Source of the DNA: Gemmatimonadaceae bacterium
GTDB taxonomy: Bacteria > Gemmatimonadota > Gemmatimonadetes > Gemmatimonadales > Gemmatimonadaceae
Assembly: GCA_013820975.1 (NCBI GenBank)
Contig: JACDHQ010000001.1
Location: 1-27,741 of the forward strand
Reading direction: 5' to 3'
Length of the DNA stretch: 27,741 nucleotides
Below the pieces are notes generated by a model. That model did no database searches, had not been told where the DNA came from, and worked only from the letters and a program-made list of their open reading frames with translations. Both the position numbers and the translations under genes were made by a program. Position 1 is the stretch's first letter; each line of letters begins with the position of its first letter. Below are positions 9,410 to 27,741 of the stretch, one piece after another.

Positions 9410-10513
9410 ATGACGCCCCTTTCGCACGGACGGCGTTTCGCCGTGGACTGCACGATCTATCGGGCGGGCATGGCGGGCATGGGCACCTACGTGCTGAACC
9501 TGTGCGAGGGGCTGTCCCGTGTCGCACGTCCCGGCGAAGTCTCGCTGCTGGTTCAGCGGCGCGAGGCTGCTGCCTTCGCCGAATTCAGCCCGCGGTTGCG
9601 CATCAGGACCGTACCGGGAAGCGGGGTCGTCCAGCGGCTGCTCTGGCAGAACCTGGTCTTCCCGATGATGAGTGGGCCGTACGACGCTGTCTGTTTTCCG
9701 GCGACTTTCCGGCCGATCCTGTTCCCCAAGCCCACGGTCGTCGTCGTTCACGACCTCCAGTATCTGACCTTTCCGGAGCACTGGACGCCGGCCCGGCTCG
9801 CGTATCGCCGGATGCTCAGCGGACTCACCATTCGACACGCATCACGTCTGATTGCCATCTCCCCCTTCACCGCGTCAGAAGTGCTCGCGCACTTCGGCCG
9901 GGAGGCGCGCGTGGTCGCGAACCCCGTTATCGTCGGCGCCCTGGCCGATGTAACCGGCCAGCCCGAATCGGCCGGCCTGGACGAACCGTTTTTCCTGGTG
10001 CTGGGGAGTCTGCTCCCACACAAGAACATCGGCGCACTCATCGAGGCACTGCGCAGCTGGCCCACAGCTGAGACGATCCCCCGGTTCGTGTTCATTGGTC
10101 CTTTCGTGCCAACGGAGCTTTCGGCCGGGTTGCCGGAAGAGCGCGTTTCCTTCCTGGGCTTCGTCAGCCGCCAGGTCCGCGACGAGCTGTTGCACCGGTG
10201 CGCCGCGGTGGTCATCCCCTCTGTGTTCGAGGGCTTTGGCCTGCCCTACGCGGAGGCGATCCTTGCGGGAAAGCCCGTTATCGCCTCGGACATTCTGCCG
10301 GCGCGGGACCTGATCGGCGACGACGGACACTACATCGCCGCGCCGTACGACGCTGCAAGCATCCAGGCCACGCTTCAGGCGGTGGTGAGGGGTCCGCTTC
10401 GCAAGCCGTCGCAGGCCACGATCGACGCCATTCGAGATCGGACGGATCCTGCCACCGTGGGGCGGCAGGTTCTCGAGACGTTGCGCGAGGCCGCGGAACG
10501 TCGTGCGGAATAA
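9410..10513 (+). CDS. GT4 family glycosyltransferase (MtfB/WbaZ-like)
   Basis: Motifs: VVVHDLQY, IAISPFTASE, GSLLPHKN, PSVFEGFGLPYAEA (E-x7-E), ASDI. Confidence 0.9.
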   Translation: MTPLSHGRRFAVDCTIYRAGMAGMGTYVLNLCEGLSRVARPGEVSLLVQRREAAAFAEFSPRLRIRTVPGSGVVQRLLWQNLVFPMMSGPYDAVCFPATFRPILFPKPTVVVVHDLQYLTFPEHWTPARLAYRRMLSGLTIRHASRLIAISPFTASEVLAHFGREARVVANPVIVGALADVTGQPESAGLDEPFFLVLGSLLPHKNIGALIEALRSWPTAETIPRFVFIGPFVPTELSAGLPEERVSFLGFVSRQVRDELLHRCAAVVIPSVFEGFGLPYAEAILAGKPVIASDILPARDLIGDDGHYIAAPYDAASIQATLQAVVRGPLRKPSQATIDAIRDRTDPATVGRQVLETLREAAERRAE

Positions 10514-10564
10514 ATCCGGGCCTGGGGTTTTGTCGGCCGGCCTGACCAGACCTCGTACTCCGCA

Positions 10565-11587
10565 CTACACCCGCTTGACCGTGTTCCACTCCAGCAGGCA
10601 CGCCCCCCACGAGTAGCCCACCCCAAAGCCGACGAGCATCACTCGATCTCCGGGCCCGAAGTCGACACCCTTCTCGAACATCGCGATTGGAATCGTGCTG
10701 CTCACGGTGTTGCCGATGGATTCCAGAAACATCGGCGCCTTCTCCTTCGGGATCTTCAGCTTGGTGCGCAGGTGGTCGTTCATGAATGCATTCGCCTGGT
10801 GAAACACGAACCAGTCGACGGCATCCCGCGTGATCCCGGCGCGCCGGAGCGTGGCATCGACGACCTGCGGGACCCGCCTGAGCGTGAACAGAAACAGCTC
10901 CTGGCCATCCATGTACAGCTGCTCCGCTGTCCGCACGGAGCCGTTCTCGTCCTCGACCTCCTGCTGGGTCGCGGCACAGCGCGGCCGGCGCGCGCCACCC
11001 GCTGGGACGATGAGGTTCTCGTAGCCTGCCCCGTCGGTGCCGAGTGTGCAGACGCCGATCTTTGCGCCGCTGCCGTCGCCGTTGATGAGCGTTGCGCTTG
11101 CGCCGTCGCCGAACAGCACGCGTACCGACCGGTCACGCGGGTGAATGAGCTTCGAATACGTCTCGGCAGTGATCAGGAGAACGTTCTTCGCCGAACCCGA
11201 AGCAACCAGTGCCTTTGCGAGGTACAGACCGTACACGTAGCCCGAGCAGCCCTGATTGAAGTCCAGCGCGGCGCAGTCGGTCGGCAGGCCGAGGCGATCC
11301 TGCAGCACGCACGCCGTCGTCGGGAGGAAGTAGTCGGGACTCTGCGTGCAGAGCAGCAGGCAATCCACTGATGCGCGATCGACGTTCATTCCCGTGAGCA
11401 GCTTCTCCGCTGCGGCAAAGCCGAGGTCCGATGCGCTCTCATCGGGACCGGCGATGTGCCGTGCGCGAATGCCTACCTTGGACTCGATGCGCGCCATGTC
11501 CCACGACGGATTCTCTGCCTGGAGGTCGTCGTTGGTCACGATGCGCTCGGGCAGATGATAGGCCATTCCCGCGATGTAGGCGTCCAT
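10565..11587 (-). CDS. 3-oxoacyl-ACP synthase III (FabH-like), copy A
   Basis: Intact Cys-His-Asn triad: NQGCSGYVYG, FHQAN, GNTVSSTIP. Also LFGDGASA and GFGVGYSWG. Confidence 0.92.
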   Translation of the reverse strand: MDAYIAGMAYHLPERIVTNDDLQAENPSWDMARIESKVGIRARHIAGPDESASDLGFAAAEKLLTGMNVDRASVDCLLLCTQSPDYFLPTTACVLQDRLGLPTDCAALDFNQGCSGYVYGLYLAKALVASGSAKNVLLITAETYSKLIHPRDRSVRVLFGDGASATLINGDGSGAKIGVCTLGTDGAGYENLIVPAGGARRPRCAATQQEVEDENGSVRTAEQLYMDGQELFLFTLRRVPQVVDATLRRAGITRDAVDWFVFHQANAFMNDHLRTKLKIPKEKAPMFLESIGNTVSSTIPIAMFEKGVDFGPGDRVMLVGFGVGYSWGACLLEWNTVKRV

Positions 11588-12331
11588 CTACCGGCCCCCC
11601 GATGTCGCGCCATGCCGGGCCGCCTGCGCCGCACCATCCGAGTCGTCGGGCTGCACCGGAGGCACGAACATGAGCCGCTGCGCCGGAACGCCAAACACCG
11701 TGGCGCCCGGTGCCACACGCCGGATCACGACACTCCCCGCACCGACCGTTGCGAAGTCACCCACGCGTGCGCCAGGAAGTACGGCGGCGTGCGCGCCGAG
11801 CGTCACGCCACGACCGAGCACGGCCCCGCCCATGATGTCGCTGTGCGCCCCGACGTGGCAGCCGTCGCCCACGACGACGTCGTGCGCCGGACCGCCCAGC
11901 AGGTCGATGAACACGAAGTCTCCGAGAACGGCGTTGGGGCCGACACCGGTGTACTGCCGCAGCACCACTCCCTCGCCAAGCGTCGCGCTGCGATGCACCA
12001 GCGATGTGGGATGGCGCAGATTCACAAAGCTTGCCCCCCGCGACCGAAGGGCGTTGCACCGGCCAAGCCTGGCGCGCGGCGACGGAATGGCGGGAACGAA
12101 CACCTCGTCGCCGTGGGGGCTGTGGTCGATGATGCCTCCGATCACGGGAAGGTCCACACCGCAGCGGGCCAGCGCATCGCGTGCGCCGTCGACGTCATCA
12201 TCCAGGAAACCCGCGATCTCCCAGTCACGCTGGTCGGCGGGAATCTCCTCCGCCGTCCAGAGTGTCTCCCGGCCGAGGCCTCCCGCTCCGATGATGATGA
12301 GGCGCCGCCGCGCTCCGATGGGATGGCTCAT
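11588..12331 (-). CDS. NeuD/PglD/VioB-family sugar acyltransferase (hexapeptide repeat), copy A, catalytic His present
   Basis: N-terminal IIGAGGLGRE...GFLDDD domain, left-handed beta-helix repeats, 'AHDVVVGDGCHVG', C-terminal GAGSVV...GVPA. Confidence 0.88.
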   Translation of the reverse strand: MSHPIGARRRLIIIGAGGLGRETLWTAEEIPADQRDWEIAGFLDDDVDGARDALARCGVDLPVIGGIIDHSPHGDEVFVPAIPSPRARLGRCNALRSRGASFVNLRHPTSLVHRSATLGEGVVLRQYTGVGPNAVLGDFVFIDLLGGPAHDVVVGDGCHVGAHSDIMGGAVLGRGVTLGAHAAVLPGARVGDFATVGAGSVVIRRVAPGATVFGVPAQRLMFVPPVQPDDSDGAAQAARHGATSGGR

Positions 12332-12334
12332 CGG

Positions 12335-12985
12335 TCAGACGGCCAACGGCCGCGCCGGCACGCCAAGCTGCGTGGAGCCCGCGGCGACACGGCGCAACAC
12401 GACACTGCCGACGCCGATTGTCGCGAACGCGGCGACCCGGACATGCGGGTGGACCGTCACGTGGCTGCCGAGAAAGGTGCCGCGCTCGAGCACGGCGCCG
12501 GACATGAGCTCGCACCGCGCGCCGACGAAGGAGCCCTCGCCGACGACGACATCCTCGCGCAATGACGCGGAAGGGTTGAGCACACTGAACTGGCCCACCG
12601 CTGCCTTGGGCGCAACGCAGGCAAGCGGTCCGATCACCACCCCGGTCCCGATGGATGCGGACCGGTGGACGCGCGCGGTCGGATGAACGAGCGTGATGAA
12701 CGCAGCACCACGATCGAGCAGCGAGCTGCCGATCGCCAGGCGCGCGCGATTGCTCCCGATCGCGGGCAGGAACACCTCGTCGGACCCCGGCACGTGATCG
12801 CGAATGGTGCCCAGCACCGGCAGGTCGACGCCCATGGCGGCGAGGCTCGCCCGCGCGCCGTCCCGATCGTCGTCGAGGAAACCTGCGACATCCCACTCCC
12901 GCGCCGCAGCGGCGATGTCGTCTGCCATCCACAGCACCTCGCGCGCGAACCCGCTTGCGCCGAGCAGCAGCAGTCGCCTGCGCAT
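12335..12985 (-). CDS. NeuD/PglD-family acyltransferase-like protein, copy B, catalytic His position replaced
   Basis: Colinear with copy A (LGASGFARE...GFLDDD...GVDLPV, GSVV...GVPA) but reads 'LREDVVVGEGSFVG' where copy A has 'PAHDVVVGDGCHVG'. Confidence 0.85.
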   Translation of the reverse strand: MRRRLLLLGASGFAREVLWMADDIAAAAREWDVAGFLDDDRDGARASLAAMGVDLPVLGTIRDHVPGSDEVFLPAIGSNRARLAIGSSLLDRGAAFITLVHPTARVHRSASIGTGVVIGPLACVAPKAAVGQFSVLNPSASLREDVVVGEGSFVGARCELMSGAVLERGTFLGSHVTVHPHVRVAAFATIGVGSVVLRRVAAGSTQLGVPARPLAV

Positions 12986-12986
12986 G

Positions 12987-13748
12987 CTAGGCGGAGTAGC
13001 CGCCGTCGATCACCAGCATGGTGCCGGTGACGACGCGGGCAGCGTCGGACAGGAGATAGGCTGCCATCACGGCAACCTCCTCGGGTTTCGGAATCCCCAG
13101 AAAGTGCTCTTCCTCGAGCTTGGTGATGACCGCGTCGGGTGTCGTCGCTTTCATCTCGTGGTACATGGGCGTCTCCACGTAGCCCGGTGCGATCGCGTTC
13201 ACCCGCACCCGTCTGGGCCCGAGCTCCTTGGCCGCGGAGCGCACGATGCCGTTGATGGCGCCCTTGGTGCCGGCATACGTCACCAGCCCGGGCGACCCAT
13301 CGAAGCTCGCCACCGACGACAGCAGCACGACGGATGACTGCCCGGCCGCCACCCCCTTGGCACTGAACCCGCGCAGGAGTCCCAGCGCCGCGTACACGTT
13401 GGGGATCATGAGGTTATCCGTGTTCGCGCGATTTGCCACGCGGATCGGCATCGTGACGCTCAGTCCCGCGGAATGCACCAGCCCATCGAGCGGCGCCTCC
13501 GCGCGTTCGCGCACACCCGTGATCCATGCCGGAATGCCGTCCATCGCCGTGAGGTCGAATGGCTCGACGCGGTGCATCTCCGCATTGGGCAATGCGGCCT
13601 GCGTCTCGCGCAGCGCACCCTCGCGGCGTCCGCCGAGCACGACACGTGCGCCGAGCTGGCCGCAGAGAATGGCGATCGCGCGGCCGATGCCGGATGAGGC
13701 GCCGGTGACGAGGATGGTCTTTCCGGTGAGGTCGAGCGGATTGTGCAC
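12987..13748 (-). CDS. FabG-like classical SDR (putative 3-oxoacyl-ACP reductase), copy A
   Basis: TGASSGIG, LVHSAG, SS, YAGTK (YxxxK), RVNAIAPG, IDGG. GTG start. Confidence 0.88.
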   Translation of the reverse strand: MHNPLDLTGKTILVTGASSGIGRAIAILCGQLGARVVLGGRREGALRETQAALPNAEMHRVEPFDLTAMDGIPAWITGVRERAEAPLDGLVHSAGLSVTMPIRVANRANTDNLMIPNVYAALGLLRGFSAKGVAAGQSSVVLLSSVASFDGSPGLVTYAGTKGAINGIVRSAAKELGPRRVRVNAIAPGYVETPMYHEMKATTPDAVITKLEEEHFLGIPKPEEVAVMAAYLLSDAARVVTGTMLVIDGGYSA

Positions 13749-13757
13749 GGGTGAAAC

Positions 13758-14894
13758 TCAGGCGTGAGTCAACGGATGTGATGCGGCGGAAGTGGACATC
13801 TGCTCCATGTACGCAGCGTGAAAGCGGTGCACCCGTTCTTCCTCTTCGCTGAGGATGCCCGGCTGCGTGGCGTCGCGCAGCCCGAGCTGGACTGCCTCGC
13901 ATACGACCCGATCTTCATGCGTCACCTTCTCGGTAAAAACCGCCGTCGACTCGGTCAGCGCGCTGTGCACCATCTCCTGCACGCCGGCGTCGGCCTTCAT
14001 TCGTGACAGAAAGACGATGCTCGTGAGCTGGGTCTCGACGGGGCTCACGGGGCGCAGCACCTGAAACCCGAAGGTCGCGCCGCAGAGGGTGGAGACGGTG
14101 ACGTTGGGGAAGATGAGCTGGTGGACGTAGCCGGGCACCGGATGCGGCATGCGGCTCGCCTTCACCAGGCGACCCAGCCGCGACGCCGTCGACGCCTCCA
14201 CGGGCGCATGCCAGGAGGAATGCAGGCCGTCGAAGCGGAAATCCATGCCGGACATCTCGAGCGGCTTGAACGTCTCCTCATGCACGAAGCCGACGTGATA
14301 CGCCTCGAGCCCGTTCTCCACTGCGACCTTCCAGTTGCAGCGCAGGAGGACATCGAGCCGCGAAACCGGCGTGCCGAGTGCGAGGCTCATCTGCTCGAGC
14401 GGCGCGAAGCTCGCACCGAGAAACTCACGAAGCGACTCCCCGGGTACGGACGAATCTCCCTCGCCTTCGGCGCCTTCGCGAACGAACACCAGGCCACCGC
14501 ACACATCCAGGTCGTAGCGTCGCAACGCAAGTCTTGCGACCTCCGCGCGGTCCTTCAGTGCATCGAAGCGCGGGCGACTCGGAATGCTGTACGGAATGCC
14601 CTCGGCGTTGTAGATCCACCCGTGATACCCGCACCGCAGCTTGCCATTGCCCTTTGCCTCGCACCGGAGCCGTGAAAATCGGTGCGAGCAGACATTGGCG
14701 AATCCGCGCAGCTCGCCGTCGAAGTTCTGAACCAGCACGGCGCGGCCGGCGACTTCGGTGGTGATGAAGTCGTTGGGAGCCGCGAGATCGGTGGCGAAGC
14801 CGGCGAACTGCCACAGGCGGCCGAAGAGGGACTGGCGTTCCATCCGGAACGCTTCGTCCTCGAAGTACGCGCTGCGGGGAATGAGGGGACGCAC
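13758..14894 (-). CDS. Rieske non-heme iron oxygenase alpha subunit (choline monooxygenase/ring-hydroxylating family)
   Basis: Rieske ligands CSH...CGYH (C-x-H...C-x2-H). Mononuclear Fe motif NWKVAVENGLEAYHVGFVH and EDRVVCEAVQLG. Confidence 0.92.
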   Translation of the reverse strand: MRPLIPRSAYFEDEAFRMERQSLFGRLWQFAGFATDLAAPNDFITTEVAGRAVLVQNFDGELRGFANVCSHRFSRLRCEAKGNGKLRCGYHGWIYNAEGIPYSIPSRPRFDALKDRAEVARLALRRYDLDVCGGLVFVREGAEGEGDSSVPGESLREFLGASFAPLEQMSLALGTPVSRLDVLLRCNWKVAVENGLEAYHVGFVHEETFKPLEMSGMDFRFDGLHSSWHAPVEASTASRLGRLVKASRMPHPVPGYVHQLIFPNVTVSTLCGATFGFQVLRPVSPVETQLTSIVFLSRMKADAGVQEMVHSALTESTAVFTEKVTHEDRVVCEAVQLGLRDATQPGILSEEEERVHRFHAAYMEQMSTSAASHPLTHA

Positions 14895-14903
14895 TGGCGG
14901 CGG

Positions 14904-15143
14904 TCAGCTCGCGAGCGAGGTCTTGGCCGACAGGTAATCCACCACGTCCTGCACCGTCAGGAACCCCCGAATTGCCGAGGACTCGATCTGCACGCCGAGC
15001 TGCTCATCGACCATCGACATGATCGTGAGCCACCCGATGGAGTTCCACTCCTCGACGTCCGCGATGCGCGTGTCGGGCGTCAGCACGCCGGCATCCACTT
15101 CCAGTCCTTCCGCGAACAGTTCCACGAGCTTGTCGTTCGTCAT
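14904..15143 (-). CDS. Acyl carrier protein
   Basis: 79 aa, acidic, start ATG 15143 with GAGGAAAGG upstream. Phosphopantetheine site WNSIG (DSL-type motif with Asn), then LGVQI...TVQDVVDYL. Confidence 0.88.
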   Translation of the reverse strand: MTNDKLVELFAEGLEVDAGVLTPDTRIADVEEWNSIGWLTIMSMVDEQLGVQIESSAIRGFLTVQDVVDYLSAKTSLAS

Positions 15144-15213
15144 CGTCCCTTTCCTCGATCGGATGAGCCGTTCACTGCAGCCAGCGGTTGTGCGGGCTGC
15201 GGCACGACTCCGT

Positions 15214-15969
15214 TCAACAGGTCCAGCCGCCATCGATCACCAGCGTCGTGCCGGAGATCGTACGCGTCGCATCTGACAAGAGGTATGCCGCGGAAGTTGC
15301 GACATCCTCCGGCGAAATGGCGCCGAGGAACTGGCGCTCCGCCACCTTCGCAAAGCCATCGCCCTGAATGTCCTGCACGACGTCCATGATCGGGCCCTGG
15401 ACCCACGCCGGGGCCACGCAGTTGATGCGCATGCGCCGCGGCGCCAGCTCCTTTGCCGCCGAACGGACCATGGCATGGAGCGCGCCCTTGGATGCACTGT
15501 ACACGGAGTGCCCGAGCGCGCCCGCAAGTCCGCTCACCGACGAGACCAGCACCAGCGATGCCGCGTCTGCCCCCACTCCTTTCGCTGCCATTCCGCGAAC
15601 AAGGGCCAGCGAGGCATACACGTTCAGCACCATGAGATCCTCCATCCGGCTCCGGTTGAGGATCCGGATGGGTATGGCTGTACTGAGCCCCGCCGCGTGC
15701 ACCACGCCGTCGAACGGGACGCCCCGCGCTGCCGCAACTCCCTTGAGCCACGCGGGAATGCCGTCAACCTCCGTGAGATCGTAGCACGCCGCGACATGGC
15801 CGGTGCCTTCGAGCATCCCCAGCGTCTCTTCGAGCGCATCCTGACGACGCGCCACGAGCACGAGTTCCGCTCCGAGCTGGCCGAGCACCACGGCGGTCGC
15901 GCGACCGATGCCCGACGAGGCCCCGGTCACGATCACGCGCTTGCCGCTCAGGTCAAGCGGATTGCGCAT
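15214..15969 (-). CDS. FabG-like classical SDR (putative 3-oxoacyl-ACP reductase), copy B
   Basis: TGASSGIG, VVHAAG, SS, YSASK, RINCVAP, IDGG. Shares the N-terminal NPLDL(S/T)GK with copy A. Confidence 0.88.
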   Translation of the reverse strand: MRNPLDLSGKRVIVTGASSGIGRATAVVLGQLGAELVLVARRQDALEETLGMLEGTGHVAACYDLTEVDGIPAWLKGVAAARGVPFDGVVHAAGLSTAIPIRILNRSRMEDLMVLNVYASLALVRGMAAKGVGADAASLVLVSSVSGLAGALGHSVYSASKGALHAMVRSAAKELAPRRMRINCVAPAWVQGPIMDVVQDIQGDGFAKVAERQFLGAISPEDVATSAAYLLSDATRTISGTTLVIDGGWTC

Positions 15970-17071
15970 GCTCGATCTGCATCTGCTCCACCGGACTTCG
16001 CCCCGCTACCACCGGAACGCGAATCACCTGAGCAACCTCGAGCCGCATCTCCACGGCGGCCGCGGCCCACGACAACCCGATGCCGAATCCCGCAAGGACC
16101 ATCTTCTCGGGCGTGCCGCTGGTGAGCACCGGCGCGAGGTCGTCGCCGAGCAGCAGCGGAATGGAAGACATGGAGGTATTGCCGTAGCGCTGGATGTTCA
16201 CCGGCACCTGCTCCGGCAGCACCTTCAGCTTCTTCGCCATCATGTTGAGGATGAAGCCGTTCGCCTGGTGAAACGCGAACGCCTTCACCTCCTCCTTCTG
16301 CCAGCCGTGCAGCGCGAGCACGTCCCTGATGAGCGTCGGCACACGCTTGAGCGTGAAGTTGAACACGGCCAGGCCATCCATGTACAGCTCGAACGGCGCA
16401 CGGCGATTGCCGTCTTCTGCGTCAACGCGCTGCAGCAACTCGGCTGTTGGCCGCTGGCGCCATCCGCCGGCCGGCGCGATGAGGTGACACGCGCCGGTGC
16501 CATCGCTGCCGAGGACGAATGAGATGGGCGGTGCGGTCTCGTCGAACTCCAGCGCGGTCGCCGTGCCAGCATCGCCGAACAGCATCGCGACGGAGCGATC
16601 CTCCGAGGAGATACCGATGCTCGAGGTATCGCCGGCAAGCAGCAGGAAGCGCTTGAGCCCACCCGACTGGATGAACTGGGATCCCATGTACAGGCCATAG
16701 ACATAGCCCGAGCAGCCCTGGTTCACGTCGAACGCAAGGGCATCGCTCGATAGCCCCAGACGCCCGTGCGCGATGTTCGCTGTCGCGGGGCAAAGATGGT
16801 CTGGGGTCTGGGTCACCATGATGACACCGTCGATGGACTCGCGCTCCCAGCCGAGGTCCGCGAGCAGCCGTTCGGCGGCCTGCACCGCGAGGTCGCCCGC
16901 GGTCTGCCCGGGCGCGACGCGGTGCACCGTCTCCAGTCCGACCGTTTTCGCGATCTTCTGGACGTCGGACTCACCGAAGTGCTTGCCGATCTCGGCGACC
17001 TGCAACGGTTCGCCGGGTACGGCGCACACGACTCCGCGGATCGCGACGTTCCTGTTCTGTGTTCTTGCCAT
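15953..17071 (-). CDS. 3-oxoacyl-ACP synthase III (FabH-like), copy B
   Basis: Intact triad: NQGCSGYVYG, FHQAN, GNTSMSSIP. Also LFGDAGTA and GFGIGLSWA. AGGAG precedes the ATG. Confidence 0.92.
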   Translation of the reverse strand: MARTQNRNVAIRGVVCAVPGEPLQVAEIGKHFGESDVQKIAKTVGLETVHRVAPGQTAGDLAVQAAERLLADLGWERESIDGVIMVTQTPDHLCPATANIAHGRLGLSSDALAFDVNQGCSGYVYGLYMGSQFIQSGGLKRFLLLAGDTSSIGISSEDRSVAMLFGDAGTATALEFDETAPPISFVLGSDGTGACHLIAPAGGWRQRPTAELLQRVDAEDGNRRAPFELYMDGLAVFNFTLKRVPTLIRDVLALHGWQKEEVKAFAFHQANGFILNMMAKKLKVLPEQVPVNIQRYGNTSMSSIPLLLGDDLAPVLTSGTPEKMVLAGFGIGLSWAAAAVEMRLEVAQVIRVPVVAGRSPVEQMQIEHAQSA

Positions 17072-17080
17072 GCCCGACTC

Positions 17081-17458
17081 CTAGGTGAGTACGACCACTG
17101 CGCCGGCGATTCCGCCGTCGTGGCTGATGCTCGTCTCGAACGTGGTGAAGCCTGCCTCGCTTGCGCGGCGCAGCGCTTCACCGGACAACTCCAGCACTGG
17201 TGCTCCCGAATCGGCGGTGGTCGTCTCGATGTCGCCGAGTGGGATGCCCGCGCTCAGGCCCGTGCCGAGTGCCTTGAGCACCGCCTCCTTTGTGGCGAAC
17301 CGGCCGGCGAGGTACGCGTAGCGGCGGAACTCGTTCGCATCCTGAACCGCAGCAAGCTCGCGCTCCGAAAAGGTCCGCGCGGCCAGCGGGGGATGCGCCT
17401 GCAGGAGGCGGCGCAACCGGGCAATTTCGACGAGGTCCAGTCCGACCCTGAGTGGCAT
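17081..17458 (-). CDS. acpS: Holo-ACP synthase (AcpS-type phosphopantetheinyl transferase)
   Basis: GLDLVEIAR, FSERE, LAGRFATKEAVLKALGTG, SISHD. Confidence 0.93.
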   Translation of the reverse strand: MPLRVGLDLVEIARLRRLLQAHPPLAARTFSERELAAVQDANEFRRYAYLAGRFATKEAVLKALGTGLSAGIPLGDIETTTADSGAPVLELSGEALRRASEAGFTTFETSISHDGGIAGAVVVLT

Positions 17459-17461
17459 CGG

Positions 17462-18079
17462 TCACTCCAGGATCGAGACGATCCTGAGGGAAGGCTCGGC
17501 CAGCTTCGCGAGCCGGGCCCGAATGGCCTCATCCTGAGTGATGCTGGTGATGACCACGGCATCGGGGGCGAGGCCGCGAAGCTCCGAGCGGTGCCGGATG
17601 GGTGCACCGCGGCACAGGCGTCCCCGCTTGACCGGGTCGTCGTCGATGACGCAGACGACGGTGACGACCTCGGTGCCTGTGAGCGCATCCATCACCACTT
17701 CCCCCGTTTCGCCGGCGCCATACAGCGCCACCCTGAAGACGCCCTGCTTGCGGAGCTCGCCGAAGAACTGCCGGAAGCGCGAGCGGGTCGCCTGGGTCAG
17801 CCGGACGAGCTCGGCCCGGTAGCTGACCTGGTGGTACGCGAGGCAACGCCTGCCCTGGGGCGTGAGGCGATAGGCCATGCCCTGGGAGAGCTGTTCGGTG
17901 GTGATGTACTCGCGTTCCTTGAACATGCGGATGTAGGCATTGACGCGAGCCGGCGTGAGCCCGACGAGGCTGGCGAGCGAACTCTGCGAGGTTTGCGGCT
18001 GACCTTCGAGCAGTTCCATCAGCTGGAGCTCGCGCATGCGGGGCGAGGGCTCCAGGTAGTCGGCGGTCGTGGTGGTCAT
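17462..18079 (-). CDS. Winged helix-turn-helix (MarR/EPS-associated type) regulator with C-terminal Rossmann-like (CoA/NAD-binding) domain
   Basis: N-terminal SQSSLASLVGLTPARVNAYIR...YRLTPQG (wHTH). C-terminal VALYGAGETG...VIDDDPVKRG...PDAVVITS. Confidence 0.82.
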   Translation of the reverse strand: MTTTTADYLEPSPRMRELQLMELLEGQPQTSQSSLASLVGLTPARVNAYIRMFKEREYITTEQLSQGMAYRLTPQGRRCLAYHQVSYRAELVRLTQATRSRFRQFFGELRKQGVFRVALYGAGETGEVVMDALTGTEVVTVVCVIDDDPVKRGRLCRGAPIRHRSELRGLAPDAVVITSITQDEAIRARLAKLAEPSLRIVSILE

Positions 18080-18087
18080 GGTGCCGG

Positions 18088-18115
18088 AATATAGCGAGGG
18101 AACTCATTCAGTGAA
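18088..18115 (-). promoter_or_regulatory. sigma70-type promoter TTCACT-N16-TATATT, 8 nt upstream of the regulator ATG (leaderless-like)
   Basis: Minus-strand -35 at 18115-18110 and -10 at 18093-18088. No Shine-Dalgarno between the -10 and ATG 18079. Confidence 0.55.
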
Positions 18116-18119
18116 TGAG
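18103..18119. promoter_or_regulatory. Perfect palindrome CTCATTCA-G-TGAATGAG, candidate operator overlapping the -35
   Basis: 8-bp arms at 18103-18110 and 18112-18119 with a 1-nt spacer, too tight for an RNA hairpin. It lies 24 bp upstream of the wHTH gene. Confidence 0.7.
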
Positions 18120-18196
18120 GGAGGGATCGTCCGCCCGGACGCGGCCACGTTCCCTTCGCAATTTCTGTTCTGCGTCTCGCGTCCGCAGGCCTCGCC

Positions 18197-19282
18197 TCAG
18201 CGGTCGATGCGGCCCGCCGCCGCGGCGTCGCGCCAGCGCGTTAGCGGGTAGAGCACGAGGATGAAGGGGATCTTCACGAACGTGCGCCAATGGGCGAAAA
18301 GCAGCCGTGGCAGGTTCTCCATCAGATGCGCGTGCTCCATGCGCGCGATATCCGGCTGCAGCCGAATGCGGCCTATTGCATGGCGGAAGAGAATTCCGAC
18401 CATGATGAGGTCGGTGATGGGTTCAGGAAGCTTCCTGGCGAACTCTGCCCTGAGGACCTGATCGTCGAGACCGAGCAAAGCGGCTTCCTTGATGGTGCCG
18501 TACGCCCGCGGTGAGAAGCGCAGATCGTGACTATCGCGGTCGCTCCATCCGATCTCCGCGCTGCGAAGCAGGAGCGTCCGCTGATGGTGAGTAAAGAGGA
18601 GCACGGAAAGGGTGATGAACCAGAACTCCGTTTCCATGCGGCCGCGGTCGCTGACGCCCTTTTCGTGAGGCGTCAGGTCACGCCGCCTGTACACGTACTG
18701 GCTGATCTTACCGAGGGCGAGCAGATGCCTGACGCCTGGCTCAAGATCGGTCACCATTACGGACGCCTGCCCATCGAGGCGCACGCGATCGCCTTCGAAC
18801 TTGTAATTGTTGAATGAGGAGACGCAGAGCTCCGGCCGTATCGTCGAGAGATCGTGAAGCAGCGGGTCGAACTCCGTGTCGTATAACCCGTCGTCGTCGC
18901 CCCAGAGGCAGACATACGACCCGCGAGCCTGCTCGTACAACAGCTGGAAGTTGCGCATCATGCCGACGTTCTCCGCCTGTCGGAGCACCCGGACGTGACA
19001 GAGCGGCGCGAGCCGTTCGCCGAACGTCCGACAGACCTCGTCCGTCTTGTCGGGTGAGGCATTGTCGGAGATCACGATCTCGACGGCATCGCGGAACGCG
19101 GACTGCTCGAGCACGCGCACCATCTGCTCGAGGAGGCGAGCCAGCTTGGGTGCGCGCTTGTAGGTCGGGATACAAAACGAGAGCAGGAGTTCGCCCGGTG
19201 GGACCGTGCCGAACGTCATCTCCGTGAAGGGCTGTGGATCAGTATGTGGATCAGTATGTGGATCAGTATGTGGGTCGGTCAT
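18197..19282 (-). CDS. GT2 glycosyltransferase, similar to 3,6-dideoxyhexosyl (abequosyl/RfbV-type) transferases
   Basis: LSFCIPTYKR, VISDNASPD, NVGMMRNF, ARGSYVCLWGDDD (DXD). ATGA coupling to the upstream reductase. Confidence 0.82.
   Translation of the reverse strand: MTDPHTDPHTDPHTDPQPFTEMTFGTVPPGELLLSFCIPTYKRAPKLARLLEQMVRVLEQSAFRDAVEIVISDNASPDKTDEVCRTFGERLAPLCHVRVLRQAENVGMMRNFQLLYEQARGSYVCLWGDDDGLYDTEFDPLLHDLSTIRPELCVSSFNNYKFEGDRVRLDGQASVMVTDLEPGVRHLLALGKISQYVYRRRDLTPHEKGVSDRGRMETEFWFITLSVLLFTHHQRTLLLRSAEIGWSDRDSHDLRFSPRAYGTIKEAALLGLDDQVLRAEFARKLPEPITDLIMVGILFRHAIGRIRLQPDIARMEHAHLMENLPRLLFAHWRTFVKIPFILVLYPLTRWRDAAAAGRIDR
19233..19280. repeat. 12-bp tandem repeat TGTGGATCAGTA x3 plus one degenerate copy, in-frame (TDPH)n at GT2 N-terminus
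   Basis: Perfect copies at 19233-19244, 19245-19256 and 19257-19268; degenerate TGTGGGTCGGTC at 19269-19280. Confidence 0.95.
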
Positions 19283-20193
19283 GTGGCGCGGGATTGAGCG
19301 TGAGCTATGACGCGGCGCAGACCCTCTTCAAGGCTCACCTGAGGGGTCCAGCCCGGGATCGGGGAACCCAGGAACCACGGAACCATCACTTCACGCTCGC
19401 GGTAGGGACGGCTGCCCCAGCGGATGGGGAGCGGACGGCCGGCGATGCGACCGTACCGCGTGGCGACTTCCCGGAGGGAGACCGCGTCTCCTGAGGAGAG
19501 GGCGAAGATCTCGTGCGCCGCGCCAGCGCCCGCCTGCAGATAGCGCGCCGCGGCGATGAAGGCGTCCACCACGTCGTCGATGTACACCAGATCGAGGAGC
19601 TGGTCCCCGGGCGACATTGCGAGCTCGGATCCTTCCCTGGCGATGCGATCGAGCACGGAGAACAGCTTTGGCCGCGGATCCCCGGGGCCGTAGGTGTCGA
19701 ACACCCGCAGGGAGACCGCGCGAATGCGTGCCGTCTCGACGTAGAAGGTCAGAAGGGCCTCGAATGCCTGCTTCGTCGCGGCATACAGGCAGACCGGATT
19801 GTAGTCGCCGTTTTCGAAGTGCTGCCACGCGGTCCCGGCGTTCACCAGGTGACGGACACCGCTGGCGGCCATCGCATCGAGCAGCTGGGTAGCGAATTCG
19901 ACGTTGGTTCGAACGAGCCGTGTCACGTCCTCCTGCTGGTGCTGTGCGACGAAGACCGATGCCAGGTGGAAGACGACGGAGGGCGCCGCCGCGGCGACGA
20001 GAGTGTGCATCTGCGCGGTAGTGCCGTCGTGGACATGAGGGACCACCCCGGGAGGCAGTGCGTCGGCTTGCGACTCCGGACGGAGGACGGCATGCACCTC
20101 CCATCCGTCCGCGACCAGCCGGGCGGCGAGATGCGATCCGATGAAGCCTGTCGCGCCGGTGATGAGCGTCCGTCGGCGGTCAGTCGGGTGCAT
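19279..20193 (-). CDS. NAD-dependent NDP-4-keto-sugar reductase, CDP-abequose/paratose synthase-like
   Basis: TGATGFIG, VFHLAS, LYAATKQAFE (YxxxK), DTYGPGDPRPK, GDQLLDLVYIDD, RPYREREVM. Located directly within the ddh block. Confidence 0.75.
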   Translation of the reverse strand: MHPTDRRRTLITGATGFIGSHLAARLVADGWEVHAVLRPESQADALPPGVVPHVHDGTTAQMHTLVAAAAPSVVFHLASVFVAQHQQEDVTRLVRTNVEFATQLLDAMAASGVRHLVNAGTAWQHFENGDYNPVCLYAATKQAFEALLTFYVETARIRAVSLRVFDTYGPGDPRPKLFSVLDRIAREGSELAMSPGDQLLDLVYIDDVVDAFIAAARYLQAGAGAAHEIFALSSGDAVSLREVATRYGRIAGRPLPIRWGSRPYREREVMVPWFLGSPIPGWTPQVSLEEGLRRVIAHAQSRAT

Positions 20194-20757
20194 CGGCCGT
20201 TGCGTCGAACCTGAAGGGGCTCACAAAATCGCTCAGGCGCTCAAAAGCAGTGTCCCGGGGAGATACCGTGGGCGCGCGTTCGGGCCAGGCGATGCCGGCA
20301 GAATCCCATCGAATGCCGGTATCGGCGGCCGGCGCGTGCTCCGACGTCACGTTGTACACCATGAGCGCACTCTCGCTCGTAACCAGGAACCCGTGCGCGA
20401 GTCCCCGCGGCACGTAGAGCGCGTTGCCCACATCCGCGCGCAATTGCACGGTCGCGGCCTGACGATACGTCGGCGACCCGATGCGAAGGTCCACCACGGC
20501 ATCCAGTACGCTGCCGTGCGCACAGTAGACGAGTTTCGCATGATCGACGGGCGGCACCTGGAAGTGCAGGCCGCGCAGGACGCCTCGCACCGATACCGAG
20601 TGATACTGCTCGTCGAAGTCCGTCTCGAGTCCGCAGTCGTCAAAGGCGGATCGAACGAACACCTTCACGAAGCTCCCGCGCGCATCCTCGAACCGTCGCG
20701 GTCGAACTTCCCACGCACCGGGAATCGCCAGTGGCTCGAAGTGCAGCACCGCGCTGC

Positions 20758-20761
<4 letters not shown>
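20180..20761 (-). CDS. rfbC: RmlC-family NDP-4-keto-6-deoxyhexose 3,5-(or 5-)epimerase
   Basis: Start ATG 20761 (ATGA overlap with the rfbH stop). Motifs: [48 protein letters not shown]. Confidence 0.9.
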
Positions 20762-22097
<1,336 letters not shown>

Positions 22098-22101
<4 letters not shown>

Positions 22102-23976: not shown

Positions 23977-24015
23977 CGTCGTCTCATGTTTCAGTGGTGC
24001 CCCACACGAACCGTC

Positions 24016-24021
24016 AGTGTA
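24016..24021 (-). promoter_or_regulatory. Candidate -10 element TACACT for the rfbF operon
   Basis: Same hexamer as the -10 at 7163, about 40 nt upstream of the rfbF TTG. No recognisable -35. Confidence 0.3.
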
Positions 24022-24029
24022 ACGCGTCC

Positions 24030-24653
24030 ATGGCCGGATATCGCGGAAAGCGCCTGTTCGACATCATTGCCGTGCTGCTCGCCGCGCCGCTCTGGGTTCC
24101 CGCCCTGGGCGTCGTTGCGGTCGTCGTGCGCTGGAAGATCGGCGCGCCTGTGCTGTTTCGTCAGGTGCGCCCCGGCCTCGACGGCCGGCCATTCGAGATG
24201 ATGAAGTTCCGGACGATGACCGATGGGCGTGATGTCTCGGGCGCCCTGCTGCCCGATGCCGAGCGGCTCACGCCAGCCGGCCGCCGGCTGCGGTCCACGT
24301 CGCTCGACGAGCTTCCCGAGCTGCTCAACGTCCTCCGAGGCGGGATGAGCCTCGTCGGTCCGCGTCCGCTGCTCGTGAGCTACCTGCCGCGCTACGCCGT
24401 GCATCACCGTCGGCGTCACGAGGTGCGTCCGGGGCTCACCGGGCTTGCGCAGGTATCCGGCCGCAACTCGCTCACGTGGCCGGACCGGCTCGATCTTGAC
24501 GTCGAGTACGTCGAGCGCTGCTCGCTCGCGCTCGATCTGCGGATTCTCGGGCGCACGGTGAGCGCGGTGCTCGGGCGGCGCGGAATCAGCGCGGAGGGCG
24601 AGGCGACCATGGCAGAGTTTACGGGTTACGCAGCGGACGAGCCGCGGCGGTGA
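24030..24653 (+). CDS. Small monotopic phosphoglycosyl transferase (PglC-like initiating sugar transferase)
   Basis: Start ATG 24030. KRLFD, RPGLDG.PF..MKFRTM, SLDELPELLNVL.G.MSLVGPRP (Asp-Glu dyad), RPGLTGLAQVSGRN. Confidence 0.93.
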   Translation: MAGYRGKRLFDIIAVLLAAPLWVPALGVVAVVVRWKIGAPVLFRQVRPGLDGRPFEMMKFRTMTDGRDVSGALLPDAERLTPAGRRLRSTSLDELPELLNVLRGGMSLVGPRPLLVSYLPRYAVHHRRRHEVRPGLTGLAQVSGRNSLTWPDRLDLDVEYVERCSLALDLRILGRTVSAVLGRRGISAEGEATMAEFTGYAADEPRR

Positions 24654-25834
24654 TGGGCCGGCGCCATGGCTGAGCGCGCCCCATCCTGGCGCGGAGACTG
24701 TCCCGCGGCCAGGCACCGCTGCAGGCTCTCGATGACCCGCGCCTGGTCCGATGCCGGGAGCGACGACGAGGATGGCAGGCACACGCCGGAGGCAAACAGC
24801 TCCTCGGCGACGGTGCCGCCCACGCGCGGCGCGTCGGCGAAGAGTGGCTGCGTGTGCATGGGACGCCACACCGGCCTTGCCTCGATCTCCGAACGACCGA
24901 GCACTTCGACCACCTCGTTGGGGCGCACCCCGGTCTGGCGCGGGTCGAGGATGGCGACGGTCAGCCACCTGGTGTGAAGCCCCCACGACGATTCGGGCTG
25001 CAGGCTCGCGCCACACATCATGCCAAACGCGGCAGCATACCGCTCTGCCACGGCGCGCCGCTGTGCCACTCGCTCGTCGAGCACCTGCAGCTGCCCGCGC
25101 CCGATGCCGGCCAGCACGTTGCTCATGCGGTAGTTGTATCCCAGTTCATGGTGCACGTACTCCGCCGCCGGCTCCCGCGCCTGCGTCGACCACTTGCGCA
25201 TGACGGCGATGGCCTCGGCGCTGCGGGCCACGACCATCCCGCCTGCCGTGGTCGTGATGATCTTGTTTCCGTTGAAGCTCAGCAGCGAATAGTCCGCGGT
25301 CGTGGCCGTCTGCCGGCCGCGGTAGGTCCCGCCGAGCGACTCCGCTGCGTCCTCGACGAGCGGGACGCCGTACTCGCGGCACGCCTCGGCGATGGCGTCG
25401 ATGTCGCAATGCTGCCCGTACAGGTGCACCGCGACGAGCGCCTTGGGCAGCGTCCCCGCCGCGGCGGCCGTCCGCAGGTACTCCCGCACCAGTGAGGGGT
25501 CGATGTTCCACGACTCGCGCTCGCTGTCGATGAAGACGGGCGTTGCGCCCAGGTACATGATCGGAAATACGGAGCCGGCGAAGGTCAGCGTGGAAACCGC
25601 AACGCGATCACCCGGCCCCACCCCCAGCCAGCGGAGGATCAGGTGCAGCGCCGCGGTTCCACTGGCGACGGCCAGCGTGGAAACCCCCTCGCCCAGCCGG
25701 CCGGCGACCTCCTCCTCGAACCGGTCGAGGTTGGGACCGACGGATGACAGCCAGTTCGAGGCGAAGGCCTCGGCCACGTACTGCTGCTCGTGGCCGCTCA
25801 TGTGCGGCACGGAAAGGTGAACGCGCGAGGACAC
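24626..25834 (-). CDS. DegT/DnrJ/EryC1/StrS PLP aminotransferase, PglE-like (UDP-4-keto-6-deoxy-GlcNAc 4-aminotransferase)
   Basis: HLSVPHMSG, ASNW...GP, SGTAALHL, VEDAAESLG, SFNGNKIITT (Schiff-base Lys), GYNYRMSNVLAGIG, RPVWRPMHTQP, GVCLPSSS. Confidence 0.93.
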   Translation of the reverse strand: MSSRVHLSVPHMSGHEQQYVAEAFASNWLSSVGPNLDRFEEEVAGRLGEGVSTLAVASGTAALHLILRWLGVGPGDRVAVSTLTFAGSVFPIMYLGATPVFIDSERESWNIDPSLVREYLRTAAAAGTLPKALVAVHLYGQHCDIDAIAEACREYGVPLVEDAAESLGGTYRGRQTATTADYSLLSFNGNKIITTTAGGMVVARSAEAIAVMRKWSTQAREPAAEYVHHELGYNYRMSNVLAGIGRGQLQVLDERVAQRRAVAERYAAAFGMMCGASLQPESSWGLHTRWLTVAILDPRQTGVRPNEVVEVLGRSEIEARPVWRPMHTQPLFADAPRVGGTVAEELFASGVCLPSSSSLPASDQARVIESLQRCLAAGQSPRQDGARSAMAPAHHRRGSSAA

Positions 25835-25956: not shown

Positions 25957-27741
25957 ATGCAGAACCGGCATTTCTTCGTTCTCGACTTCATCCTGCTCAT
26001 CCTGGTCGCGGCGGTCGCATTCACGTCGCGATTCGAAGGGTGGGGGTGGTGGGCCGACTGGCATCGGGAGGCCATCTGGCTCGCGCTCCTGATCGTCCCG
26101 CTGAAGCTTGCCATCTTCCACGCAGTCGGGATATACCGCCGGCTCTGGCGGTATGCGAGCGTGGCCGAGCTCGAGATCGTCCTGGTCGCGTCGGCGGTGA
26201 CGGCAGGGGTCACGCTCCTGGCCGGCACCCTGGTTCTCCCGGCACTTGGAGTCGTATCGGGACGCATCCCGCTGAGCGTGCTGCTCATCGACAGCATTCT
26301 GACGCCGGCGGTCATCACCATCCCGCGCATCGTCCTGCGGTCCTGGGCCAGGCGTGAGCTCAACGGAAGGAAGAGTCCCGCATCCGGCCGCCGGGCGCTC
26401 ATCGCCGGTGCGGGCGATGCCGGAGGCATGATCGCCGCCGAACTGCTCAGCAACCCGCAACTCGGCATCGTCCCGGTGGGCTTTCTCGACGACGACCCGT
26501 TCAAGCGGGGGCTCCACCTCCGCGGGTTGCGCGTGTTCGGCCCGCTCTCGACGCTGGCTGAGCATGTGAAACGCCACGAGGTGGACGAAGTGATCACCGC
26601 GATGCCGTCCGCGCCCGGGGCCGTGATCCGGGAGCTGGTGAAGGTCGCGGCGACAGCAGGGGTCAACGTCCGCACGATTCCGGGGCTGTACGAGATCCTT
26701 TCCGGCTCCAAATCGGTGAGCACGCTGCGCCAGATCGAGATCCAGGACCTGCTGCGGCGCGAGCCGATCGAGACCGACCTGGAAGAGGTCGGTCGCATGA
26801 TCACGGGGAGGGTAGTGCTGGTTACTGGTGCCGGGGGGTCGATCGGCAGCGAGCTGTGCCGCCAGATCGCCCAGCTCTCCCCCGCGAGGATCGTCGCGCT
26901 TGGTCGCGGCGAGAACTCGGTGTTCGAGATCCTGCAGGAGCTGCAGGTGACCTACCCGCACATCGACGTGGCGCCGGCGATCGTGGACGTGCGCGACGAG
27001 CGGCGACTCGACGCGGTGTTCGCCGCGCACCACCCGCATGCGGTGTTCCACGCGGCCGCCCACAAGCACGTGCCGCTCATGGAAGCGAGCGTGGACGAGG
27101 CGATCCTCAACAACGTGGTGGGGACGCAGAACGTCGCCGAGTGCTGCTCCATTTATGGCGCTGAGCGCCTGGTGCTCATCTCGACCGACAAGGCCGTACG
27201 GCCCACGAGCATCATGGGGGCGACGAAGCGCGTCGCCGAAGGGGTGGTGCATGCGGTGGCCGACCGCGAGCAGAAGAACTTCGTGTCGGTTCGGTTCGGC
27301 AACGTGCTCGGCAGCCGGGGCAGCGTGGTGCCGACATTCATGAGGCAGATCGCCGCCGGTGGGCCGGTCACCATCACCGACCCGGAGATGCGCCGCTACT
27401 TCATGACGATCCCGGAGGCGGTGCAGCTCGTACTGCAGGCGGCGGTGATGGGCCGCGGCGGCGAGACGTTCGTGCTGGACATGGGCGAGCCGGTGAAGAT
27501 CGTGGACCTTGCGACCGACCTGATCCGACTCTCGGGGCTGGAGCCGGGAACGGACGTGGAGATAAAGTTCACCGGGGCGCGCCCGGGGGAGAAGCTGTAC
27601 GAGGAGCTGTTCTTCGGGTCGGACGTCGCGACGCCGACGGTGCATCCCAAGGTCCTGCGGGCTCGCGACACCCACTTTCCACCGTCGATGGCGCTGATGG
27701 TCGACCGCCTGGCCGAGGCGGCGTGGCGCGCGGCGCCTACC
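25957..27741 (+). CDS. Membrane-anchored UDP-GlcNAc 4,6-dehydratase, PglF/CapD/WbpM family (3'-truncated; missing from ORF track)
   Basis: Hand translation from ATG 25957: MQNRHFFVLDF...GIYRRLWRYASVAEL, GFLDDD, VTGAGGSIGSELCRQ (26821), STDKAV..MGATK (27181), RFGNVLGSRGSVVP, RPGEKLYEEL. Open to the window end. Confidence 0.95.
   Translation, partial: MQNRHFFVLDFILLILVAAVAFTSRFEGWGWWADWHREAIWLALLIVPLKLAIFHAVGIYRRLWRYASVAELEIVLVASAVTAGVTLLAGTLVLPALGVVSGRIPLSVLLIDSILTPAVITIPRIVLRSWARRELNGRKSPASGRRALIAGAGDAGGMIAAELLSNPQLGIVPVGFLDDDPFKRGLHLRGLRVFGPLSTLAEHVKRHEVDEVITAMPSAPGAVIRELVKVAATAGVNVRTIPGLYEILSGSKSVSTLRQIEIQDLLRREPIETDLEEVGRMITGRVVLVTGAGGSIGSELCRQIAQLSPARIVALGRGENSVFEILQELQVTYPHIDVAPAIVDVRDERRLDAVFAAHHPHAVFHAAAHKHVPLMEASVDEAILNNVVGTQNVAECCSIYGAERLVLISTDKAVRPTSIMGATKRVAEGVVHAVADREQKNFVSVRFGNVLGSRGSVVPTFMRQIAAGGPVTITDPEMRRYFMTIPEAVQLVLQAAVMGRGGETFVLDMGEPVKIVDLATDLIRLSGLEPGTDVEIKFTGARPGEKLYEELFFGSDVATPTVHPKVLRARDTHFPPSMALMVDRLAEAAWRAAPT

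Follow-up and report, generated by a model that had tools for sequence, protein, structure and literature searches.

A Rieske Oxygenase Family in Short-Acyl Glycan Cassettes: A Gemmatimonadaceae Locus Predicted to Attach an Oxygenated Hydroxyacyl Group to an Amino Sugar

Short N-acyl groups on 6-deoxy-amino sugars are dominant, serotype-defining epitopes of O-antigens and flagellin glycans (e.g., in Flavobacterium psychrophilum and Vibrio cholerae O100), and the genes for such groups have so far been proposed from gene content only. Here, we analyzed a 27,741-nt stretch of DNA from a Gemmatimonadaceae bacterium (GenBank: GCA_013820975.1, contig JACDHQ010000001.1, positions 1 to 27,741; hereafter, the window), in which a polysaccharide locus encloses a ten-gene, minus-strand cassette at 10565–18079. 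On balance, we favor a reading in which this operon encodes a dedicated type II line, based on an acyl carrier protein (ACP), that places a short, oxygenated hydroxyacyl group onto the C4 amine of UDP-2-acetamido-4-amino-2,4,6-trideoxyglucose (UDP-QuiNAc4N). The basic gene kit is known. What is new is that a specific Rieske oxygenase family occurs regularly in these cassettes across many phyla, a version of the kit that is undescribed in the literature searched. Rieske-bearing cassettes thus predict a class of more oxidized acyl decorations not yet tied to genes by structural surveys.

The Rieske protein (378 aa; 13758..14894, minus strand) is a non-heme-iron oxygenase α subunit with Pfam Rieske and Ring_hydroxyl_A domains and no β subunit. 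Both the CxH...CxxH cluster and the 2-His-1-carboxylate iron site are present, and the ligands (C69, H71, C88, and H91, together with H200, H205, and D328) are invariant across 40 relatives. With the AlphaFold 2 model (predicted local distance difference test score, 92) as query, the top Foldseek matches were 3vca, 4quq, and 6y9d, at TM-scores of 0.72–0.75 and approximately 20% identity; these structures represent Stc2, CntA, and an unassigned Silicibacter protein. CntA and Stc2 are β-less Rieske mono-oxygenases that oxidize aliphatic sp3 carbons of small substrates. The window protein has in common with CntA/YeaW (carnitine) and Stc2 (stachydrine demethylase) the fold, both metal-binding motifs, and the lack of a β subunit gene, and its Atlas cluster is labeled "YeaW family". 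In sequence searches, matches covered only the N-terminal 200 residues. Unlike CntA, the window enzyme has no adjacent CntB-type reductase gene, and unlike both CntA and Stc2, it is encoded among acyl-ACP and glycan genes rather than in a quaternary-amine catabolic context.

To collect relatives, we ran a pattern scan on a single genome for each species. It returned 80 named loci, which came from Acidobacteriota, Gemmatimonadota, Bacteroidota, Verrucomicrobiota, Planctomycetota, Cyanobacteriota, and the Alpha- and Betaproteobacteria. For neighborhood counts, we took 83 loci from about eight phyla and clustered every open reading frame (ORF) up to 9 kb away from the Rieske gene. A short-chain dehydrogenase/reductase (SDR) was encoded nearby in 61/83 loci, a β-ketoacyl-ACP synthase III (KASIII) in 56/83, a DegT aminotransferase in 48/83, a PglD-like acyltransferase in 39/83, and a 77-aa ACP in at least 28/83. 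Therefore, the Rieske family is a regular member of short-acyl glycan-decoration cassettes. A gene-neighborhood search had been suggested as a check in an earlier sequence-only reading of the window; here, it placed the Rieske gene beside such genes in most of the 83 loci, which supports its membership of the acyl line. Several cassette architectures exist, in which ketosynthase (KS), SDR, Rieske, and acyltransferase genes number one or two.

The nearest Rieske homologues (57–64% identity) lie on metagenome contigs with the gene order of the window. In loci L001 and L002, this order is found beside PglC/PglE/PglF genes, with identities of 53–77%. The L001 cassette adjoins PglE and PglC and contains two Rieske paralogues (64% and 56% identity to the window protein) separated by an SDR gene (L001:10001-13052), which suggests two oxygenation steps. 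The L002 cassette is directly followed by a dedicated FabD (Acyl_transf_1; 14647-15603), then by a family 4 glycosyltransferase (GT4) and PglC/PglE/PglF.

The closest precedent for the cassette is the wfp locus of F. psychrophilum, in whose O-polysaccharide the Qui2NAc4N residue bears an amide-linked 3,5-dihydroxyhexanoyl group (Cisar et al. 2019, PMC6519341). That locus encodes a PglC (wfpB, 200 aa), two KASIII enzymes (wfpC, 333 aa; wfpE, 350 aa), an ACP (wfpD, 76 aa), a reductase (wfpF, 242 aa), and a PglD-like protein (wfpG, 216 aa), which were proposed, on the strength of gene content and a nuclear magnetic resonance structure, to assemble the acyl group on the ACP and then transfer it (PMC6519341). 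In our data, the wfp locus (L136) reads PglC-KS-ACP-KS-KR-AT-PglE-PglF (KR, ketoreductase; AT, acyltransferase) and has no Rieske gene. Flavobacterium sp. CF136 (L016) encodes orthologues of wfpB–G in the same order (74, 73, 66, 71, 76, and 54% identity, respectively; PglE, 75%), and the sole addition is a 359-aa Rieske gene inserted between the second KASIII and the reductase. The same Rieske-plus, wfp-like layout is present in F. tistrianum, F. hibisci, Chryseobacterium culicis, Aquirufa, and several further Flavobacterium genomes. The acyltransferase is the most diverged gene between CF136 and wfp (54% vs 66–76%), which fits a need to accept a modified acyl group. The sequence-only reading had suggested a further-oxidized and perhaps uncharacterized substituent, and that suggestion gains support from CF136. 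Cultured Flavobacterium strains possessing the wfp cassette plus the Rieske gene, set against F. psychrophilum without it, constitute a natural experiment.

The window resembles wfp in having two KASIII enzymes, a private ACP, FabG-like reduction, a PglD-like acyltransferase, no dehydratase, and linkage to PglC/PglE/PglF; the last linkage is also found in L001, L002, and L136. Identities to the wfp proteins are 47% for KASIII-A (KSA) to WfpC, 35% for SDR1 to WfpF, 28% for acyltransferase A to WfpG, 44% for PglE, and 46% for PglC. Relative to wfp, the window additionally encodes the Rieske enzyme, an AcpS, a winged helix-turn-helix (wHTH)-Rossmann regulator, one more reductase, and an extra acyltransferase from which the catalytic His is missing; KASIII-B (KSB) falls in a different clade from WfpE, and the gene order differs. 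A second precedent is the vio island of Pseudomonas syringae, in which a KASIII, a 3-oxoacyl-ACP reductase, an ACP, and a VioB-type acyltransferase provide a hydroxyacyl group on a 4-amino-6-deoxy sugar (Yamamoto et al. 2011, PMC3927599). The vio system has one condensing enzyme, a C4 product, a dTDP-viosamine acceptor, and flagellin as its target, and no Rieske oxygenase, AcpS, or regulator is listed among its genes; the ORFs compared in that paper likewise include no Rieske gene (PMC3927599). In the window, by contrast, the acceptor derives from UDP-GlcNAc, and the locus is of the Wzx/Wzy type. The type of system is thus already known from the vio island and wfpC–G, though from genetics and gene content alone, and kinship to both, the PglC/PglE/PglF linkage in relatives, and the similarity of KSA to WfpC all speak for the earlier proposal of an ACP-based line acylating the PglF/PglE amino sugar. 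Our searches of the literature yielded no account of a Rieske oxygenase taking part in acylation of this kind.

We next consider the substrate of the oxygenase. In the window and its closest relatives, the Rieske gene directly follows the ACP gene. In Nostoc sp. FACHB-892 (L026:4363-12623), a 36%-identical Rieske protein is encoded between a type I polyketide synthase (PKS; KS-AT-ACP-ACP, 1845 aa) and a PapA-like/condensation-type acyltransferase, a non-glycan context with no sugar genes. Because of this PKS context and the position directly after the ACP gene, we favor a carrier-bound substrate: the Rieske enzyme probably hydroxylates an acyl chain while it is attached to the carrier. If true, Rieske enzymes that act on carrier-bound aliphatic chains would be of interest for biocatalysis.

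Domains were assigned by Pfam and NCBIfam profile searches of the window ORFs. As the sequence-only reading described, the cassette is a contiguous minus-strand run of ten genes, and the coordinates of all ten ORFs within 10565-18079 were confirmed. From 18079 downward, the order is wHTH-Rossmann protein, AcpS, KSB, SDR2, ACP, Rieske α subunit, SDR1, acyltransferase B, acyltransferase A, and KSA, with successive intergenic gaps of 3, 9, −17, 70, 9, 9, 1, 3, and 0 nt. The domains encoded, the catalytic residues, and the close spacing of the genes are consistent with an operon. The AcpS-type phosphopantetheinyl transferase (125 aa; 17081..17458, minus strand; PF01648, 7.8e-18) exceeds the curated cutoffs (TIGR00516, 74.8 bits vs 59.8; TIGR00556, 91.2 vs 45.35). 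The ACP (14904..15143, minus strand; PP-binding, 2.1e-7) has its Ser in an EWNSIG motif. Its ORF extends to 15233, but the internal ATG at 15143 is the likely true start, giving 79 aa, because the L001 and L002 orthologues are of that length. The (E/Q)W(D/N/S/T)S motif is kept in 19/20 aligned ACPs; the exception is a divergent second Asticcacaulis ACP (L052), which keeps only the Ser.

The condensing enzymes KSA (340 aa; 10565..11587) and KSB (372 aa; 15953..17071), both on the minus strand with ACP_syn_III and ACP_syn_III_C domains, retain the catalytic Cys (GCSGY), His (FHQAN), and Asn (GNT). The FabG-like ketoreductases SDR1 (253 aa; 12987..13748; adh_short/KR) and SDR2 (251 aa; 15214..15969; adh_short, KR, and adh_short_C2), also on the minus strand, carry YxxxK motifs (YAGTK and YSASK, respectively). 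Both sets of residues can be read in the sequences, as had been reported. KSA and KSB share 41% identity with one another and 29–34% with the FabH encoded on contig C217 of the same assembly. Neither reaches the cutoff of the housekeeping FabH model TIGR00747 (256 and 190 bits, respectively, vs 292), and KSB was below the FabH cutoff in another comparison (229 bits vs 249). The best Protein Data Bank match of KSA is 3gwa, a Burkholderia pseudomallei KASIII (363 bits), and that of KSB is 4efi, a Burkholderia xenovorans KASIII (264 bits); both are structural-genomics entries whose names give no function.

The cassette genes are extra copies. In assembly-wide searches, which throughout covered a fragmented assembly (3.16 Mb, 684 contigs) that is 78.6% complete, housekeeping fabH-fabD-fabG lie on contig C217, and a second AcpS match lies on C160. 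The window was said to contain no dehydratase, enoyl reductase, or FabD, and this holds for the dehydratase and FabD: the assembly's only FabA/FabZ match is on contig C22, and its only Acyl_transf_1 (FabD) match is on C217. No enoyl reductase was seen among the scanned ORFs. The description of the line as self-contained does not survive, as FabD is encoded only on C217 and our searches turned up neither a ferredoxin nor a reductase to serve the Rieske enzyme.

The two acyltransferases proposed from sequence are present, and both are PglD/VioB-like with PglD_N and Hexapep domains, but only one keeps the catalytic His. Acyltransferase A (247 aa; 11588..12331, minus strand) retains it (AHD), whereas acyltransferase B (216 aa; 12335..12985, minus strand) has Glu in its place (RED), compared with DHD in PerB, EHE in PglD, and SHG in VioB. 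The two are 54–55% identical. Both match TIGR03570 (NeuD/PglB/VioB) at 1e-42 to 6e-44, below the model's 160.8-bit cutoff, and both are closest to the solved VioB structure 7txp (3.4e-20 for A). The PglD_N domain binds nucleotide sugars, and the nearest proteins are VioB, PerB, and PglD. Among cassette acyltransferases, the catalytic His is retained in 40/42 and is lost only in B and its L002 orthologue (11915-12601), which has Pro at this position; the L001 orthologue of B keeps the His. From these residues, acyltransferase B is probably a noncatalytic or altered partner and may be a noncatalytic subunit of a mixed trimer. We propose acyltransferase A as the acyl-ACP:UDP-QuiNAc4N N-acyltransferase.

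In the pathway that we envisage, the cassette AcpS would convert the cassette ACP to the holo form, and malonate would be loaded by the housekeeping FabD of contig C217, as the cassette encodes none. By analogy with vioS/vioR, one KASIII would condense acetyl-CoA with malonyl-ACP, and SDR reduction would give 3-hydroxybutyryl-ACP; by analogy with wfpC/E/F, the second KASIII and SDR would extend this to a 3,5-dihydroxyhexanoyl-type C6 chain. Because the cassette encodes neither a dehydratase nor an enoyl reductase, the chain would keep both oxygens. The β-less, CntA/Stc2-like Rieske mono-oxygenase would then add one oxygen at an sp3 C–H of the carrier-bound chain, with electrons from an unlinked reductase. 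Acyltransferase A, with its catalytic His, would pass the chain on to the amino sugar that the PglF-like and PglE-like enzymes produce, and the PglC-like enzyme would begin the repeat unit with the acylated sugar by loading the sugar-phosphate onto the lipid carrier. The two condensations on one chain are taken from the gene count and the wfp precedent. The probable product is UDP-QuiNAc4N bearing an oxygenated C6 (or C4) hydroxyacyl group, and the added oxygenase predicts a group more oxidized than 3,5-dihydroxyhexanoyl.

More broadly, and tentatively, the Rieske proteins may form an undescribed family of ACP-directed oxygenases that oxidize short C4/C6 hydroxyacyl chains before attachment to amino sugars, yielding decorations (e.g., trihydroxyhexanoyl or hydroxy-oxo-acyl amides) on O-antigens, flagellin glycans, and nonulosonic acids in at least eight phyla. 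In the window, the AcpS, a possibly nucleotide-sugar-sensing regulator, and the His-less partner would form an extra layer of control. We know of no reported glycan decoration of the trihydroxyhexanoyl or hydroxy-oxo-acyl amide type, and nothing relevant was found under trihydroxy- or hydroxy-oxo-acyl product names in the literature searched. One candidate, the 291 Da flagellin glycan of B. pseudomallei read as viosamine plus trihydroxyhexanoyl, was dropped as its reported fragments (acetyl, formate, and possible acetamidino) do not fit.

A phylogeny of the condensing enzymes, also suggested by the sequence-only reading, distinguished the two KASIII types without assigning the starter enzyme. 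KSA lies inside a well-supported clade that includes WfpC (25 rows, SH-aLRT 100), and KSB lies in another group, together with the KS enzymes of cassettes that have just one. Among the Rieske-bearing loci of the pattern scan that were placed on the tree, each KSA-clade KS has a second KS in its locus. Starter and extender roles were not assigned, as the signals from the tree and from co-occurrence conflict.

The cassette could instead perform a single condensation per chain, with the two KASIII/SDR/acyltransferase sets working in parallel or redundantly as C4 (3-hydroxybutyryl-type) lines on one ACP and differing, for example, in stereochemistry or acceptor; the Rieske enzyme would then hydroxylate the C4 chain. 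The two SDRs (52% identity) and the two acyltransferases do look like tandem duplicates by sequence, many Rieske-bearing cassettes are single-KS (β-proteobacteria and Azospirillum), a lone KSA-clade KS with an SDR occurs in L115, L117, and L118, and V. cholerae O100 bears C4 and C6 acyl groups on two sugars (PMC12024518). Given that the window encodes only one amino-sugar aminotransferase, that acyltransferase B lacks the catalytic His, that KSA-clade enzymes are always paired in the tree-placed Rieske-bearing loci, and that two KASIII enzymes lead to a C6 chain in the wfp precedent, we regard parallel C4 lines as unlikely. We also think it fairly unlikely that the acyl line operates as proposed with the Rieske enzyme acting after transfer, on the N-acyl nucleotide sugar or the sugar itself. 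The Rieske gene adjoins the acyltransferase gene in several architectures (e.g., KS-SDR-AT-Rieske in Paraburkholderia, and the Burkholderiaceae loci), and the nearest folds work on free, small, polar molecules; against this stand the Nostoc relative in its PKS/PapA setting, the position of the Rieske gene after the ACP gene, and the divergence of the acyltransferase between Rieske-plus and Rieske-minus Flavobacterium cassettes, which fits an acyl group modified beforehand. Highly improbable, in our view, is a cassette that feeds a non-glycan product (e.g., a small secondary metabolite, lipid A, or membrane lipid) and whose place in a polysaccharide locus is a coincidence. All of its parts are fatty-acid-synthase-like, and a Rieske relative does occupy the Nostoc PKS locus, but both acyltransferases have PglD_N and are closest to VioB, PerB, and PglD, a sugar aminotransferase is linked in 48/83 loci and PglC/E/F in many phyla, and there is no dehydratase or enoyl reductase for making a lipid chain.

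Several observations weigh against the pathway that we prefer, the two-condensation line with oxidation on the carrier. The activities and the product are predictions from genes. We looked for an electron donor for the Rieske enzyme and found neither a ferredoxin nor a reductase in the window, in the 79%-complete assembly, or among conserved neighbors of the relatives; a single NAD_binding_1 match turned up in the assembly, and it belongs to a ferric-reductase-like membrane protein. The Rieske gene also occurs in single-KS (C4) cassettes, beside NeuB, and beside flagellin-type glycosyltransferases, so these contexts do not reveal which position the enzyme attacks. The KS of single-KS cassettes is of the KSB type, yet in some Flavobacterium loci that lack the Rieske gene, a KSA-clade KS and an SDR stand alone. 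One acceptor amine is available for two acyltransferases, and ACP-dependent, as opposed to CoA-dependent, transfer by PglD-like enzymes is a proposal only in the literature consulted.

The wider distribution of the family extends to other glycan contexts. Neighbors comprising a tetratricopeptide repeat (TPR)-GT41 protein and an FkbM methyltransferase are found in Chthoniobacter, Methylovorus, Xylophilus, Paracidovorax, and other Betaproteobacteria, an arrangement that we take to resemble flagellin glycosylation islands; the TPR-GT41 cluster excludes the Paraburkholderia loci. In Asticcacaulis (L052, L055, and L079), Rieske-SDR pairs occur with KASIII, NeuB, GNAT, an AMP-ligase, and a second ACP, and neighbors comprising NeuB, GNAT, an AMP-ligase, and a further ACP recur in other Alphaproteobacteria; the family may decorate nonulosonic acids too. 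The Azospirillum loci (L004/L005) have Rieske-SDR with KASIII, GNAT, AMP-ligase, and a second ACP, without NeuB. Within Gemmatimonadota, the Rieske gene is rare (2/300 other sampled genomes, 33–35% identity), and this patchiness suits a serotype-type mobile module. Five Burkholderiaceae loci (L131-L135) have the order KSA-ACP-KSB-SDR-AT-Rieske, beside PglF/DegT/PglC in L131 and L132 and beside DegT alone in L133. Structurally, the two KS types are best represented by 3gwa and 4efi, which may come from such cassettes. In two Burkholderiaceae genomes (G887 and G818), the KSA orthologue has one in-frame TGA and may be a pseudogene or reflect a sequencing error.

The window, which is the longest contig of the assembly (approximately 66% GC), is a Wzx/Wzy-type polysaccharide locus. 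To the right of the cassette, the acceptor pathway comprises a PglC-like phosphoglycosyl transferase (219 aa; 23994..24653, plus strand; Bac_transf, 2.4e-57; the 46% match to WfpB), a PglE/LegC-type sugar aminotransferase (402 aa; 24626..25834, minus strand; DegT, 1.7e-87; LegC family, 5e-101), and a PglF-like, membrane-anchored UDP-GlcNAc 4,6-dehydratase (25957..27741, plus strand; Polysacc_synt_2, 4.8e-115, and CoA_binding_3; four transmembrane (TM)-like segments) whose ORF extends past the window end. The PglE/LegC-type enzyme is the only amino-sugar transaminase in the window; its 44% identity noted above is to the F. psychrophilum PglE homologue. Also on the right, the minus strand encodes a GT2, a reductase, an RmlC-like epimerase, RfbH, a CDP-glucose 4,6-dehydratase, and a glucose-1-phosphate cytidylyltransferase. 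This RfbF/RfbG/RfbH/RmlC-like/reductase set (19279-23976) is a complete-looking CDP-3,6-dideoxyhexose route and not an amino-sugar route. RfbH, a 447-aa DegT protein, was considered as the maker of a second amino-sugar acceptor and ruled out, as it is a true 3-dehydrase (728 bits vs a cutoff of 423); the PglE product is thus the sole amino-sugar acceptor that the window supplies. The dTDP-viosamine route (RmlA/RmlB/VioA) is absent from the window, which encodes only CDP-glucose and UDP-GlcNAc routes. RfbH depends on a [2Fe-2S] flavoprotein reductase (the E1/E3 pair). No E3/RfbI-type reductase is encoded in the window, and no such flavoprotein was found in the assembly; RfbH and the Rieske enzyme might share one [2Fe-2S] flavoprotein encoded at an unlinked site.

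To the left of the cassette lie SDR-family epimerase/dehydratase-like genes (36-1595 and 1608-2558), a Wzz/GNVR protein (4221-5402), one more epimerase, and two GT4 glycosyltransferases. Two minus-strand multi-pass membrane proteins without a Pfam match (2603-4132 and 5708-6994), each with at least eight TM-like segments, are likely the Wzx flippase and Wzy polymerase, of a divergent type.

The first gene of the cassette had been called a regulator. Its product (205 aa; 17462..18079, minus strand) does have an N-terminal winged helix-turn-helix (HTH_24, 1.2e-7; the MarR_EPS match is weak), and the call needs amending in that this domain is fused to a PglD_N-like Rossmann domain (Methyltransf_14, 4e-8; PglD_N, 0.0066). 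Orthologues (61–65% identity) head the cassette in L001 and L002, and the protein probably controls the operon. No intrinsic terminator was found on the minus strand of the scanned region (10300-18400), including after KSA. A promoter scan of the same region, which is a consensus match only (one found vs 0.6 expected), gave a single sigma-70-like match, TTCACT-16-TATATT (18088..18115, minus strand), 8 nt upstream of the regulator ATG. This match overlaps a 7+7 bp palindrome, TCATTCA c TGAATGA (about 18103-18119; the two together span 18088-18119), and their placement before the ATG suggests autoregulation, with a leaderless transcript or a mis-called start.

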